Below are positions 1 to 15,795 of a DNA stretch of 64,000 nucleotides, piece after piece. Each line of letters begins with the position of its first letter. The first letter of the stretch is position 1. The DNA lies in the NCBI RefSeq assembly GCF_041146345.1, contig NW_027191406.1, forward strand, positions 186,001 through 250,000, written 5' to 3'. The translations under genes were made by a program, and so were the position numbers. The notes below the pieces were generated by a model. The model did no database searches. It saw only the letters and a program-made list of their open reading frames with translations, and had not been told where the DNA came from. This DNA comes from Neodothiora populina. Its lineage: Eukaryota.

Positions 1-51
1 TCGAAATTGTGACTGGAGACAAAGGAAGAATGTCCACGACCTCTAATCCAC

Positions 52-1417
52 TCAATCCCAAACTCCCAGCGTCGAGTCCGGTGCTCGCTGCCTGCGCGGA
101 TTTCTACCTTCAATTTCACGAATCAAGTCGTTCCGTATGCATCTGATCATACTGTTCATGATATCTCTAGTATGTAAATAGCTAGCTTCATTGTCATGTG
201 ACATTCGGAGTGGCGGAGACCAGTTCTTCCACAGGTTGTTGTGACCAGGGCGAAGGGCAAAGTTGCCTGGGTGGAAACGCATGTACAGGCTGCAGCAGTA
301 GCAAGATGGCTTACTACAACCGATGTAACGTTCATCGAACACGAATCGTAAGTTTCGAGAGTGAAAATGCTCCATCAGAAATACTTCGGCATGCACTCTG
401 GGTATGAATGTTTTGCTTTCGTACATCTCTCTAAACCATAGGGCTACGCCGTCTCTCATGCTGGCCAGTGCAGAGCAGAGTTGCTCAACACGGTCTTGCT
501 GATCATGAGATACCATGCGCTTCAGGGCGCTTTCCAAAGTGGTCTTTTGATCTGGGGCGGGTGCTTTTGGTGCTGCTGGAATCTCAAGATACTTGACGGT
601 ATGACCGTCAACCCATGCTGGATACATCGAGATTGTATCAATGAGCGAGCACGAACTTCTATGCCAGCTTGAGAGGCGGCCGATACTATGTCGGATTCTC
701 GACCAGACTGAGCCCTCTCCGCTACTGCGGGCCAGGTTCGAGAGTGTCCCAAGCTTGCCAGATTCATGAAATACCGCAGCTCTGTGACAGAGTTCTTGGT
801 ACGTAAAGCTCTCCCAGGTAGACAATTGAAGGACCGTATCAAGATCATCTACTCTCGATGATGAGAAATTATTACATAAGTTGTTCGGATCATTGAGTTA
901 TTCGGATCATTGACTTACTCGATATCTGTGACATTGCTCCCGATTCACGAGCTTCCTTGACTGCGCCGCTGAGCTTTTTCGCGTAACTTACGGCTTTTTT
1001 CTTGCCGAACTTGATACATCTTCCGAGCATGATATTCTTTGCTACATCCTTCTCGTCTTCGGAGGCGTTGTTGAAGCTGGCAAGATGTTCCAACAGCCAG
1101 CGTAGGTGTCCGTTTTGCTTGGGAAGCCATCCAGCAAGCCAGAAGACGGGTCCTGCAGGTTTCGTTTCAACCGCAATGGAGCAAGTCGTCTTGCCACCAT
1201 TTTCGGGATCACACAGTTCGCAAAGATTGTCCAGGAATCTGCGCCAGTCCATTATCGTGTTGCCTCGCAGCTGTGTCGACGAGAAGTCAGGCTCGCCGGC
1301 ACCTCTATTCGGATTGATGATCGAGAGCAAGAGCAATGGCTCGTAGAACCGATGACGAAGCCTCTCGATGGGGTCAAGTCTGGGACGGCCAACTCTAGGG
1401 CTGGCTGTAGAAGTCAT
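52..1417 (-). CDS. OTT_1508-like Zn-dependent nucleic acid/nucleotide deaminase (2 exons; intron 849-918)
   Basis: C-terminal motifs RVHAEVFLMEHF and YIGCSKPSCYCC (HxE...PCxxC-type deaminase signature). A GTAAGT...TAG intron at 918-849 joins ORF 890..1417 in frame to ORF 52..825 (SQIS-N-DLDTVLQLSTW). Confidence 0.85.
884..917. repeat. 17-bp tandem duplication inside the deaminase intron
   Basis: ttcggatcattgagtta (884-900) followed by ttcggatcattgactta (901-917), one mismatch. Confidence 0.85.
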
Positions 1418-1586
1418 GTTGAAGGTTTCGATTATGTGGCAATCTGCTAAAGTAGAAGCAGCTTGATATATTGGGATATTGCCACCTATTCACAGGCATT
1501 ATAGACACCTCCAAGATCACCTAACATGACTGACACTTGAATCCTGATCCATGTTCTGCATGGCTCAGAGCCCTTGACGTCGCCGA

Positions 1587-2351
1587 TCAAGCGACTGTCA
1601 AGATATCTGCGATGACATGCCAGGGATAGCCCGCCAACTCATCCTGGACAGCGCATGAGAATCCTGTCAATGGAATAGACTTTACAGTGGGCAGGTTTTT
1701 TGATCCCCAATACCACACCGTCAGTCCAGCATCCCAGGATATACCTGAGCATGGAGCGGGTACATCCAGAATAATGCAATCGTTTGATCGCGGGCAGAAC
1801 CACCTGATGCTTGTCGACATATGTTTGAAGTCATGCAGCATCCCGTCCAAAGGGAGCGATAATTTGCCAAAGATCCGGATGTGGGGCTGATACACACCAG
1901 GTCCTTGATACAACTGACCTGGTCTTGCTTGTTGACGTGTAGTTCACATCTTCCACGATCCAACAAAAGCCTTGCAGATCGAAGTACGATATCCCGATCC
2001 ATGACTACCGTTCATAGACGTGTAAACAATGGAGGAACCACTCCTGTGCAGCAAATGTAGCATACCACTACAGTGGTACCACTGCAGTGGTAACGCGAAC
2101 CAAACGACAAGGTAGGCCTCATACTCCCCATGGCAGGAGGAATGATCCACCACCTCGAGCTCTACACGATGACCATACGACACGTCGAAGCCCGGCGCTA
2201 TTCTGCAATTGTTAGGATTGACCCTGAAGCGCCCTAATCCAGAGAATGCTTGCCTTTAGTAGGTCTTTTCGAAGATTCTGAAGGGCAAACAGACATAGAG
2301 CATAGCTGTCATTGACCAGTGTTGTTTGCAAGATGTGGTTGGGGTTAGCAT
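1587..2351 (-). pseudogene. Probable interrupted gene of unknown function (about 255 codons, 2 in-frame stops)
   Basis: ATG 2351, ORF 1944..2183 and ORF 1587..1913 all lie in one frame, broken only by TAA 2256-2258 and TGA 1944-1946. A TATA-like CTTATAAG lies just upstream, and there is a possible in-frame GC-AG intron (gcaagc...ctaacaattgcag). Confidence 0.45.
2063..2092. repeat. 30-bp near-perfect palindrome made of two overlapping 16-bp palindromic units
   Basis: taccactacagtggtaccactgcagtggta matches its reverse complement at 28 of 30 positions. Confidence 0.9.
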
Positions 2352-2862
2352 ACTGATGAGCTCTCTGTTCACCTTATAAGATGCTCCTCGAGGAACATCA
2401 GAGCTCGGGCGTCCCTTGTACGAGTATACCAACAGCGATTGGTCGTTGCGCTGTACTATGTATGCGACTTGCTAGATACCTCCCGTGCTTATGTTGAACG
2501 CCGATCCAGTCGCTTATATTTTTCATACCAGTCCATTGACAACTTTTAGGTGCCTTAGGCACCGAGACCCGACGTCTGCGCGCTTCGTGTCCGTTCGTAA
2601 TGCAATGCGTCCTTCCTTTCATTTCAGAAGTTCTCCCAATTTGGCTCAGAATTTTGGATCTTCGGCACTCTCACACGTATTGAACATCATTCTCTTGACG
2701 CTGGTTGACATTATACTATCCACGAATTGGGAAGCTATTTAGTCATATGAGTGAGCCTTGATTTATCTAGGACACGATTCCACTAAGAGCTCTTCGAGTT
2801 CGTGAGGAACGCTATCTAACGCTTAGGTATGGTACGTGTCATCCCGCTACGCTCCTTGACGA

Positions 2863-5152
2863 CTATCTGCGAAGGTCCTCCAGACTCTGATCCAGAACCT
2901 GCAATAACCCTCGTAAATGATTGCGCCTCTCTACGTTTCCATCTGGCTCTGCAGCGATGCTGCGGAGATCTTCTTCACTCAGCATGACCACAGTCTCAGG
3001 GCTGAAGACCTGCGAAAGACCCCGAAGCAGATGGCGTTCGATAACTTGTTTGCAGACATTGTCGACATATGTTTTGAGCGCAACCTACACAAATCAGTAA
3101 GGTCTCCAACCGAACCTAGCATTTTACTCGATGATGGACATACCTTGTAGTATGCATCGAGGCCTGCCAAAGCTTCCTCACATGCTTGGACATCCATATC
3201 GACGTTTATTCTATGCTGTAGTGAAGCAAGAAGCTTCTGACCGTCCACTGTGTTGTTGCTAACGTGCAGCTTACCGTTCCAATCCGTTTCTGTCGTCTCT
3301 TTCATGGCTTTCTCAATCGCTGCCTTGAGAGATGCTTGTCGAGACTTCTGAATATTATCAGTATAATAGTGATTGTAAGTTATTGGTTGCTGCCTCTCGT
3401 CTTCATGTAATTTGTCGAGCTCCTGCCGGGCAATTCTCAACTTTTCATTCAGGGACGAGAATATGATCTGTGCAACCTCTTCTCGCACAAGCTCCTCTTT
3501 AATGACATGACGCAAGGCTGCTTGCGTGAATCTCACAATGATTTCGTGGGTTCTGTCGAGATGTGCTCCAGCAATACTAGACCACATACTCGATTGCACG
3601 TGGAATAACTCCGACAGAAGCACATGGTTCGTATTACCTGGTAACTCTTTTCCTCTGTTCCTTCTGTAGGTCTACCGACCGTCAGCTTATTGGGAATATC
3701 CTGAGAGAGAGAAGGATCTCATACCTTGCTGACCCAGTCGATCATATGTTGCCTTGTGACTCTGACCTGGCTACAATCAGCTAAGCTCTCAGCCTCTGCC
3801 GATCCGTCAGCCACATCAGTATCGTAAACTGGTGGTGGAGATTCGCTGTATTCTCCGGGAACGTGGGCACTATCCGAGACCACCTTCCTCTTCGCGCCGT
3901 TGACACGCATATTTGCCGCGAACTCGATGTTCAGCTGATGTACCGTCGCTCTAAGCCTCGTGTCGTGATACCGCGAGTCACTTTCGACATGGGGAAAGAA
4001 GACTGGGTCACATTCATGGTATCCGCCGTTCGTGGCTGCAATACTAAGATTGTGAAATGTCATAGACAGGCGGGAAAGAAATCCTCGCATTCGTATGAAA
4101 TCCGGTCTCTCCTCACCCATACTTTGAAGTTGGCCCTCAGTCCGGCGCATGAGACTCTGGATCTCTTTACGCACTTTTGGCAGCTCGTGTTCTATGTGTC
4201 GATCTAAGAGCTGCTGGAGAAAAACTTGTAGCGATCTGATCCCAATTCTATCCGCATCCAGATCTTGCTCTCTCCATGGTGAGTTCTGGAAAAATGCAAG
4301 CTCTCTTCTGCGTCTTTCGTGGAGGTCAAGCCTCTGCTCCAGTTCTTTTGGGGTGGGATTCTTGAGCAGAAAAAAGCCAAGTTTGAGCTTGGTGGTATCC
4401 TGGTTTTTGGCAAGCAATGCGATCCTAGTCTCAGATCCTTCGTTGATGAGGTCTGGTTTAGTGATGATTCCAACTGTTCTTTTGCCCTCAGGATCAACTT
4501 TACGAGATTTGATGATGATGCTCTGATTGGCGATATCGTTTCCCGCTTGGACGACAGCGAGAATGATTGTTCTTGGGTTGGCAATGTATTTGTCCACCAG
4601 TTTGTGAACGACTTCGACGTCCTGCTCGGTCTGCTCTTCGTTCGGAACAAGTATGATACCGGGTAGGTCGACAACAGATAAGTGCAAGCCAACAGGGCCT
4701 GTGACCTCAACTCTGAAAAGATCGTCTGCAAAGGAAGGGCCCACAGTATTCTCTCCAAAACCTCTGATACCCATCAATACTCCCGCATCGTTAATCGCCT
4801 CTGGCAGGTCTGCAAAGCTCTCGAGCTGACGCCTGTAAGCTTGCATAGCGTCCGAAGTCGCCTCATCGCGAGTCTTGCAAGGAATGAGAGTGGCGATGAT
4901 CTGCAGATCCTCTCTGTCACTGTTTTGGAGCAGTATTTCGGTTCCGAACCGGGTACAGACACCATCCTGCCTCGGAAAGGGCAGACCGGTCAGCCCTTCG
5001 AGTACAGAACTTTTCCCAGCAGATTGATCACCAGAAACGACAAGTTGAGGAAGGTCAACATGATTGCCCACTCCACTGGCTCGCAGAGCAGCGATCTGTT
5101 CGAGTCGCAGGGATGATCGTTCCGAATGGAGAGCGGAAATTTGATGGTCCAT
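2863..5152 (-). CDS. Mx-like fungal dynamin-family large GTPase with middle and GED domains (exons 5152-3725, 3671-3144, 3084-2863)
   Basis: G1 GDQSAGKSSVLE, G2 CTRF, G3 DLPG, G4 TKPD, RGKELPG middle motif and GED-type AYYKVALKTYVDNVCKQVIERHLL. Both GT-AG introns restore the frame; stop TAG at 2863-2865. Confidence 0.92.
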
Positions 5153-5925: not shown

Positions 5926-5930
5926 TGGAA

Positions 5931-6049
5931 ACGTACAGCAGCAGGGATTCCCACGTGGTCACCCACCGTAGTACTAATCTGCCGGTCAACTGCTTATGTC
6001 TGGCAGAGCGGACGGGATGCCCAGTTTTCAGCTGCCTGTGGCCGTACGT
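5931..6049 (-). rRNA. Dispersed 5S rRNA gene (119 nt, intact)
   Basis: Minus strand reads ACGTACGGCCACAGGCAGCTGAAAACTGGGCATCCCGTCCGCTCTGCC...TTAGTACTACGGTGGGTGACCACGTGGGAATCCCTGCTGCTGTACGT, with complementary termini and typical ascomycete 5S internal motifs. Confidence 0.96.
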
Positions 6050-6259: not shown

Positions 6260-7298
6260 TTACACTTTCTGAGGTTTTCTTGGTGGAGCGCCGCCAGTCA
6301 ACGGACGGGCAGTGCCAGTACTCGGTGCAGAAGTTGGCACTTCATCATCAGAATCAGACGCTCCGTCCTCAGACTGCCTCATTTGACGACGTCTTCCTTT
6401 GTCGTCCTGCTTGCGTAGTTCTAGTAGTCTTGCTCTGCATCCTTCCTTGTCGAAGTCTGCCGGCCAGCCGTAGTGGAAATAGGTATCGTAAATCTCCTTA
6501 GGTTCTCGTCAGAAACGGATGATTGGATATTCGTATGAGTCACTTACTGCAGTAGGTGAACAATGTGCAGCCAGATGAGGAGGCTCGCTGCTTGTATCAG
6601 GATGCCATTCTTCGAGATCGTGAGACAAGTTCATCTTCCTCCAGGCGGTTTCGAGCTCGGGTATAGAAACAGCCAGTTGTAGGACCACTTATCGCACTCG
6701 GCGACAGCATGTAGACGGGATTCTCATAGCGCAGCGTCCAGGCTCGGAAAAAGTCCGTTACTGGCAAAGTGAAGTGAGCTCTCCACTTGTCTGCTTCCGG
6801 GATGGTCTCATATTCTTCGTATGGGACATCTATTCGCCAGCCCCCGACGCTATACGCTGTCACGGTTCCTTCCGCTCCGTCAGTTTCAATATGACAATTG
6901 TCAGAATATATAAACTTGCCTCTCTCAGTGTCAAGAATAAGCGAGTAACCTTCGCGATCCACGCCTTCAGTCAAGTAAACACAATGGCTTGGCAGAGGAT
7001 ACACTTGGTCCATCACAGGCCTGCGCCAAAAGTCATCACCAGCATAGCAGATGGGCACCGTCTCATCTTGCACCAGGAGTCGTTCGTAATAGCCTTCAGC
7101 GAAAAGATATGGCAGGTGACGCAGCAGGTCGATGACGGTGTCGTTTTTTCCACACGCCTCAAGAGCTTCGGTAGCAAGCGAGTCACCCCAGCCGGTGGCG
7201 GGGGGGAGCTGCAGGGCGGATTCGTTCAGGTATGGATGCTTGATTATTTGTGTGTAGAAGGCTAGCACTGCTGATACTGTTTCGTCTCGCGAGTACAT
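6260..7298 (-). pseudogene. Conserved-looking fungal hypothetical protein with an apparent +1 frameshift near 6600-6690
   Basis: N-terminus MYSRDETVSAVLAFY...LPPATGW...DLLRHLPYL. GC-AG intron at 6869-6919. A GTAAGT intron at about 6499-6547 leads to a terminal exon EIYDTYFHYGWPADFDKEGCR...QKV* that is only reachable from the +1 frame. Confidence 0.55.
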
Positions 7299-14422: not shown

Positions 14423-14482
14423 TTATTGGTATGAAGAAGAACCGAAAGAACCAGAAAATTCGTGGGAATGCGTTACCGACAT
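14423..14482 (-). promoter_or_regulatory. eIF5 uORF2 (19 aa, weak AUG context)
   Basis: tgcATGt context; MSVTHSHEFSGSFGSSSYQ*; ends 45 nt before the main ATG. Confidence 0.7.
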
Positions 14483-14562
14483 GCAGTAGAACAGCAATAA
14501 CAAATGAACTCTGATCGAGGATTTTTCTTTGGGTCTTTCAAAGAAGTCTGGCTGGGCTGATA

Positions 14563-14670
14563 TCAACCGTTGGTACTGAGATGACCGCTACAGGGTCTTC
14601 GCAATATGCGAAATGGCTGCAGCTTGGGCGGCGGCGGAACTGCAAGAGCGTGGTAGGAAGACGAATACAT
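14563..14670 (-). promoter_or_regulatory. eIF5 uORF1 (35 aa, weak AUG context, contains PPPP)
   Basis: tttATGt context; MYSSSYHALAVPPPPKLQPFRILRRPCSGHLSTNG*. Confidence 0.75.
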
Positions 14671-15795
14671 AAACACCACGCTTGTTAAGTGCTTCGATGA
14701 TTTCTGGGGATGTTTGGGATGGATAGAACGGGTTTCTTTGTGGAGGGACAAGCGCAGGCGGGCTCAAAGTAAGCTCGTAGCGCAGACTGTAGGGGTTTGA
14801 GGGATGTGTTGTCTCGCAGATGAGAGAGTTTGACAGAGTAAAGCCTGAGGAACAGGCGGAATTTGGCGTATGTGCGCTTTTTGTATGTGTTGTAGGAAAA
14901 AGGATGAAAAGTGAGACGGGAAAGACTGATGAGCAAAAGTGATGATGAGTCGGTCTTAAGGCTGTGTGCGAGCCGTGTAGCGGAGGCAGGCAAATTCTGT
15001 TATTCGCGCCGTCTCCCGCACTAGTCGAGCTGCCTCTAGTAGCAGACCCTAAGGTACCTTTACTGTCTCCGTACTTTTATTACCCTTCCACCCCTCCACG
15101 TGCCCTGCCAACGATGCACATATGCGTAGTTTTGGTACTGTTTCACCTGTCGACGACCGTGGTCCGATACAGTTTCGCGCTTGATTCACGTTAGGTACCG
15201 CAATGCACGAGGCATTGTGTTGTTGCATTTGGAATCCGAGAGAAACAAAACATGAATGGCCGCGTGATTTCATTGTCGTGTTGCTTCCTTCTCAATCCGC
15301 AAAGCTTTTCCTCCTGCCTAAACGGCTACGATTGTCTGCCTTATTGCTAAGCTCTGCCTACAGTTGATCCCGAATGCATGTGCTGCTGCCTGTATAAAGT
15401 AAAGTAAGGTAAGTACCGTAGGCTATGTCCGCGTCATGATCACCCGGAGCATTGATCCGCGCTGCGAAGGCATAAACCGAACACCACATCAACTATTAGA
15501 CACATTTGCACATAAAACTTGGTGCACGAGAGTCTTGTATAGCAGCTGCTACAGCGTATGGTGTATGAATGTAGTCAGTTACCAATAGATTAGAGTAATC
15601 ATGCGATTTGATATGACACATGCTGTAACAGTCACGATGTCGCTCTTGGCGATATGAGCGAGCGAACGAGTCGTGGTCATGCATAAAGTAAATTCGAGGT
15701 CTGGTGAATCACGAGTGGAGCGTGAGCTTCTCAACTCGTCTCTATCGTGTCATCCTTTTGTGTCAACGGATAGAATACATCACAAGCACGAGAGA

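Follow-up and report, generated by a model that had tools for sequence, protein, structure and literature searches.

The left end of the window, i.e. of the 64,000-nucleotide stretch of Neodothiora populina DNA analysed here (G000:C8:186001-250000), carries a gene for an OTT_1508-like deaminase and, on the same strand, one for an Mx-like dynamin, and the question arises what such a deaminase acts on and whether the dynamin is its partner. An earlier note had joined the two into a linked defence module. We found that deaminases of this family recurrently adjoin a different gene, which lies here just outside the window and contains an invariant in-frame UAG, with coding selection continuing beyond it and a predicted hairpin around it. 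From our point of view, the deaminase is probably an adenosine-to-inosine (A-to-I) mRNA editor of the OLD type, and the adjacent premature-stop (PSC) gene is its target. As such, the notion of a linked defence module is retained, but with its core moved from the dynamin to the PSC gene, which is the commoner partner.

The deaminase and its premature-stop neighbour

The deaminase gene (window positions 52..1417, minus strand) is intact and encodes about 432 amino acids in two exons, 1417-919 and ~851-52, which are separated by a single intron (918 to ~852) with an acceptor that is ambiguous by 1-2 codons. Its spliced product contains the HAE, GCSK and CYCC motifs and matches the Pfam family OTT_1508_deam (E 8.8e-20), so that the earlier assignment as an OTT_1508-type deaminase with intact motifs holds. 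Its likely chemistry is A-to-I mRNA recoding of the OLD type (PMC12754623) rather than APOBEC-like mutagenesis or toxin action. No relative of the deaminase was found on viral contigs.

The PSC gene (C8:184388-185444 = L012:8388-9444, minus strand) exists as a single copy in the genome and is set apart from the deaminase gene by a 0.6-kb spacer, of which the end occupies window positions 1..51 (minus strand). Its recurrence was assessed in 53 deaminase loci, which came from one scan of metagenome contigs and were searched with every part of the island that surrounds these genes. PSC homologues flank the deaminase in 12 loci by tblastn and in 14 of the 53 by hidden Markov model (HMM), 10 of them independent, and the gene is present in 9 of the 15 loci with flanks of 3 kb or more on each side. 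The two genes are arranged in tandem, convergently or divergently. One gene model, P0282, merges the two neighbours, and the PSC fragment P0373 and the deaminase match P0046 stem from contigs of the same size.

Predicted exons of the PSC gene are L012 9444-9397, 9342-8789 and 8739-8388, the first with a non-consensus donor site. According to this gene model, the product comprises 317 amino acids if an in-frame TAG (C8:185031-185033 = L012:9031-9033, minus strand) is read as Trp, and 119 amino acids if it is not. A TAG occupies the identical codon in the own gene and in all 13 loci that were read directly (the 12 tblastn loci and L100; L101, a near copy of L100, was not counted). The stop was never TAA or TGA in any PSC locus read, as is required if a single A-to-I change, with U at -1, is to yield Trp, and the codon that follows is TCN (Ser) throughout. 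Since a TAG also ends the dynamin reading frame, it is an ordinary stop in this genome.

Homologues of the exon-2 protein were missed entirely by a word-seeded search, whereas a profile search succeeded and returned 429 cluster representatives. Among the best 150 of these, for which the site was classified, 93 end at the residue before it, 37 span it, 8 start after it and 12 belong to none of these groups, most of them being gene models that are gapped at the TAG site. The spanning members carry His (24), Trp (5), Arg (3), Gln (3) or Tyr (2) at the site, one of them being poorly aligned. In a host look-up of 20 family members, gapped or partial models were named for Fonsecaea, Exophiala, Cladosporium, Zasmidium, Polychaeton and Cercospora, and members with His for Stromatinia and Rhynchosporium; two further gapped or partial models are labelled as trees and are probably fungal contaminants. 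We take the named hosts to be mostly Dothideomycetes and Eurotiomycetes. In two family members, P0232 (Logan, a 1227-base contig) and P0247 (ENA), the exon-2 and exon-3 parts are joined in one chain and Trp takes the place of the stop; P0232 may derive either from a transcript that was edited and spliced or from a TGG allele in genomic DNA. Five small contigs of run X1, one of which ends at the TAG, are uninformative on editing because this run is probably DNA.

Ahead of the TAG, the PSC proteins share a mean pairwise identity of 30%, and beyond it one of 34% (10 sequences); nucleotide identity by codon position after the TAG is 0.59/0.69/0.36 (11 sequences), third positions varying most. Judged by these comparisons, coding selection continues past the TAG. 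Were the TAG nevertheless a true stop, the gene would yield just the short N-terminal protein, and what follows would be a relic or a gene of its own, as one could imagine from the 8 representatives that start after the site and from the PSC gene of L077, which has an additional stop downstream of the TAG. The own gene, however, offers no Met within 45 codons 3' of the TAG, the 37 spanning homologues continue through the site as one chain that is modelled as a single confident unit, and conservation beyond the TAG is no lower than ahead of it. We therefore regard the absence of any recoding as very improbable.

The TAG further lies in a predicted mRNA hairpin (L012:9018-9053), which consists of a 6-bp inner stem and an 8-nt loop, whose last two bases are the U and A of the UAG. 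In all 10 contexts that were folded, the A is predicted to be unpaired (P >=0.96) and the G to close the local stem, and L100 behaves likewise (11/11). The probability that the G closes the hairpin averages 0.96 compared to 0.29 in synonymous shuffles, a level that was reached in 0 of 20000 resamples (10 sequences). The outer stem shifts its register among loci.

With regard to the encoded protein, the model of a full-length homologue forms a confident all-helical domain (pLDDT 91.8) that is folded as one unit and in which a long core helix begins at the site. No Pfam match, zinc-finger families included, was obtained for 10 aligned and 25 longer members, and no C2H2 motif for the island or the 150 representatives; one loose C2H2-like pattern, located within the helical domain in L077 and L082, lacks conservation. 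For two models, Foldseek found no PDB match at E<=0.001 and the best Z of VIA was 5.6 and 4.7, which does not establish the fold as new, and an Atlas search with P0232 gave no usable match. The tail is acidic and nearly free of Lys and Arg in 4 of the 5 loci in which it exceeds 40 amino acids, and thereby resembles acidic activation domains.

In the switch that we propose, the locus would be induced, by analogy, by a mycovirus or by stress, and the deaminase would convert the loop A of the UAG to inosine. The codon would then be read as Trp, and a stub of 119 amino acids would become an all-helical protein of 317 amino acids with an acidic, aromatic-rich tail. Most simply, the full-length protein would be a transcriptional activator or a growth-arrest effector that is too costly for constant expression.

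Several points weigh against this reading. The editing of the UAG, its dependence on the deaminase and an antiviral role are all things that we infer, and the function of the full-length protein, such as that of a transcription activator, is suggested by analogy and composition. Most read-through members carry His and not Trp at the site, and covariation of the stem, with the register fixed, was not above shuffles. The linkage was sampled from the deaminase side only, and 6 of the 15 long loci have a deaminase without a PSC gene, with no convincing alternative TAG target found in these six. L093 is among the loci that lack the PSC gene although its deaminase is 92% identical to the one of Friedmanniomyces, and in Polychaeton and Zasmidium the PSC models are on contigs of a different size from those of the deaminases listed there. 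Lastly, no co-variation is seen between deaminase and PSC distances (Mantel r 0.06, p 0.42, 11 pairs, with fragments of unequal length).

This lack of co-divergence would also suit a recoding of the UAG by other means, namely by Tad2-Tad3-type editing or by programmed read-through aided by the hairpin, with the deaminase being co-regulated and acting on other substrates. Gln and Tyr, which besides His and Arg are found in stop-less members, are residues inserted on UAG read-through. On the other hand, an A at the loop end with the G paired, as predicted here, is more in keeping with an editing substrate than with a read-through stem further downstream, and the adjacency to the deaminase is kept in three orientations. 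The editing of CHE1 in Fusarium graminearum was initially ascribed to ADAT activity (PMC11169179), but editing of the Ame1 type is argued against by the hosts, since Tad2-Tad3-Ame1 editing is described to have arisen in Sordariomycetes (PMC11087585) and the hosts here are mostly found elsewhere. Overall, we consider recoding by such other means unlikely.

If the deaminase edits the PSC mRNA, a third gene may contribute in some of the loci. Directly upstream of the deaminase and on the same strand, 10 of the 53 loci, mostly from one deaminase clade, contain a gene for a protein with a YWFGKKYF-type motif and a C-terminal double-stranded RNA-binding domain (dsRBD), for which the Pfam family dsrm scored above cut-off in all six cases tested. 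It is located at L067:7950-8660, at L074:8430-9125 and 14480-15105, at L082:6290-7040, and in L077, L079, L080, L090, L098, L100 and L101; in the own island, it is absent by HMM. The protein is a candidate sensor of double-stranded RNA (dsRNA) or editing cofactor. In a deaminase tree that used 41 of 47 fragments, the dsRBD-linked loci cluster and the own gene lies on a long branch outside this cluster.

Other genes are likewise common to unrelated deaminase loci, with best segments of 54-63% identity, namely at L052:4085-5213, L054:3993-5101 and L055:10070-11178 and, in L090, L098 and L100, at ~3.2-5.8 kb. In Zymoseptoria, the long non-coding RNA MSTRG.63441 is described as divergent from an OTT_1508 gene at a distance of ~700 bp and as co-expressed with it (r 0.91; PMC10711317), and its label as non-coding may be an error that conceals a premature-stop target.

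The Mx-like dynamin and its linkage to the deaminase

The dynamin gene (2863..5152, minus strand), an accessory member of the MxF type, has two introns, and its exons 5152-3725, 3671-3144 and 3084-2863 are spliced to a frame of 725 amino acids without an internal stop. Exon 1 shows a 100% match to a database protein that is likewise 725 amino acids long. Pfam Dynamin_N and Dynamin_M score above cut-off, the G1 (GDQSAGKS), G3 (DLPG) and G4 (TKPD) motifs are present, and the best solved relatives in the PDB are Mx1 and Mx2 (139.7 bits for Mx1 versus 122.7 for Vps1). The GTPase with its G motifs is hence as intact as had been claimed; the GED that had been reported with it is not confirmed by HMM, because Pfam detected none on exon 3 or on the full protein. 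A second Mx-like dynamin with 38% identity is found near a contig end at G000:C6:26.9-28.3 kb (L004, L017), without an HMM match to the PSC gene or the dsRBD gene in C6:1-37000.

Could a linked module for antiviral defence or allorecognition have the dynamin and the deaminase as its obligate core? The dynamin lies within 10 kb of the deaminase in 4 of the 13 metagenome loci with 5 kb flanks, and in five assemblies of Friedmanniomyces the accessions of the two proteins are two apart, with one gene in between. Among 93 deaminase and 119 dynamin matches, contigs of the same size are common to both in 4 cases versus 0.39 expected (P ~5e-4), though this genome-wide null overstates the signal because both families gather in variable regions, and one shared contig measures 6 Mb and is uninformative on the distance. 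The dynamin recurs near this deaminase family more often than by chance, but it is optional: it is absent from 9 of the 13 long loci, and L082 has dynamin, PSC gene, dsRBD gene and deaminase in a row while its near twin L077 lacks the dynamin. Moreover, the linked dynamins vary in identity (35% to 72%), strand and distance, with L100 and L101 containing fragments only. The recurrent linkage within 10 kb that the earlier note had proposed to count is thus borne out as a real but optional association, whereas a role of the dynamin as an obligate core appears quite unlikely, slightly more so than recoding by other means. On the reading that the deaminase edits the PSC gene, the dynamin would be a passenger or a downstream effector that is often part of the same variable defence island and is not needed for the switch.

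The variable island and its surroundings

Both genes, together with the PSC gene, are part of a variable island of ~11 kb, which sits between housekeeping genes, namely an oxidoreductase gene on one side and a twinfilin-like gene on the other. It extends from ~3.7 kb left of the window to window position ~7750, and the suspicion that the cluster continues to the left was hence correct. A protein kinase gene (~L012:7064-8023, plus strand) is located in the part left of the window and has no match among the 53 deaminase loci.

The unit between deaminase and dynamin (1587..2471, minus strand) is a stop-poor frame of ~295 codons with two stops (TAA, TGA). The interrupted frame described earlier is therefore real, but a working gene could not be confirmed: the unit has no Pfam match, no paralogue in the own genome, no usable Atlas match and no counterpart in the 53 deaminase loci, and is probably a decayed coding sequence. 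A decayed dsRBD gene was considered and rejected since there was no HMM match. A near-perfect palindrome of 30 bases with two 14-base units (window 2063-2092) inside this frame is possibly a transposon footprint.

Further to the right, an intact 5S rRNA gene (5930..6049, minus strand), one of at least 40 dispersed copies, is followed by an orphan open reading frame in pieces (6260..7296, minus strand) with an intron and a probable frameshift. The latter has one weak paralogue on C2 and no Pfam match, and belongs to the island without taking part in the switch. As for the 5S genes, their dispersed copies may point to sites that are prone to insertion. A 5S-targeted insertion of a Starship was rejected, as the 5S gene is intact, no second half is nearby (a split 5S piece is absent from the window and from the 40 kb to its left), and there are neither terminal repeats nor a signal of repeat-induced point mutation. 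Although a dynamin match is listed among Starship cargo in one paper (PMC12134995), the suggestion that the dynamin is such cargo finds no backing here, since no captain was found at or near the island and the only DUF3435 match of the genome is on contig C4. At ~8 kb from this captain-like match, there is a second OTT_1508 gene, a distant one (G000:C4:1180.3-1190.9 kb, L019), and the pieces between them, which have no Pfam match, are presumably kinase-like and patatin-like. A third OTT_1508 gene is found at C14:504.7 kb.

Comparison with OLD-ZAO and related systems

OLD-ZAO is an antiviral editing module of Neurospora crassa (Honda et al. 2025, as presented in PMC12754623), in which OLD deaminases edit the premature UAG of the adjacent zao gene on virus infection and thereby unlock a protein that harms growth; the enzymes favour hairpin loops and U at -1 and are said to need cofactors that have yet to be identified (PMC12754623). 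A 2026 commentary calls the generality of this module unknown (PMC13327615). The locus described here resembles OLD-ZAO and CHE1 in that an OTT_1508 deaminase with HxE...CxxC adjoins a gene with a conserved premature UAG, in the predicted position of this UAG in a hairpin loop with U at -1 (11/11), and in the annotation errors that accompany it, i.e. truncated, downstream-start and false-intron models. It differs in its hosts, which include Dothideomycetes, a class not listed for OLD-ZAO in the commentary, in its stop-less relatives, which mostly carry His, and in the dsRBD gene (10 loci) and the Mx-like dynamin as optional neighbours. Since Che1/ZAO is described with three C2H2 fingers and a long unstructured N-terminus (PMC11169179), while the PSC protein has no such fingers and a predicted well-folded helical domain around the stop, the PSC gene belongs to a different target family. 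No description of a non-zinc-finger OLD target was found in the literature covered, outside of which Honda et al. 2025 and its supplements lie and could mention one.

Compared to the fungal OTT_1508-like deaminases for which a mutagenic role or one in incompatibility was put forward (Iyer et al. 2011, PMC3239186), the protein is alike in its N-terminal domain, in a deaminase domain with GxxK before CxxC and in the proposed defence role; the conserved UAG of the neighbour, however, points to site-specific recoding. The dynamin agrees with fungal MxF dynamins (PMC11789081) in its Dynamin_N and Dynamin_M domains, in Mx1/Mx2 as best solved relatives and in a variable copy number, the label MxF-type being derived here from domains and PDB matches. 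In the passages of that paper that deal with these dynamins, an antiviral function is not demonstrated and a linkage to OLD loci is not mentioned.

If the proposed switch is real, the editor and not the zinc-finger factor would be the conserved unit, A-to-I recoding would extend to Dothideomycetes, and a large protein family would come to light that a stop codon has hidden from annotation. It would also offer a single exact nucleotide that can be checked in fungal RNA-seq, a hairpin consensus for the substrate rules of OLD, the dsRBD protein as a candidate for the cofactor or sensor mentioned above, and grounds, from genome data, for regarding fungal Mx proteins as antiviral candidates. One could speculate even further, in the sense of a serious but not yet probable possibility taken as a whole, that OLD deaminases are a modular platform of editing-gated immunity. 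One editor would then unlock unrelated effector families, of which the PSC family, widespread with hundreds of clusters and without a known fold, would be the second. The dsRBD protein, which often joins in, could act as a sensor of viral RNA or as a guide for the editor and, together with the dynamin, form operon-like defence islands comparable to bacterial ones. What appears to be new is the target family without zinc fingers, the signature of an OLD-type editing switch being known: at the level of sequence, the locus seems to share all features of OLD-ZAO except the zinc fingers, and is as such OLD-ZAO-like, yet not a ZAO.

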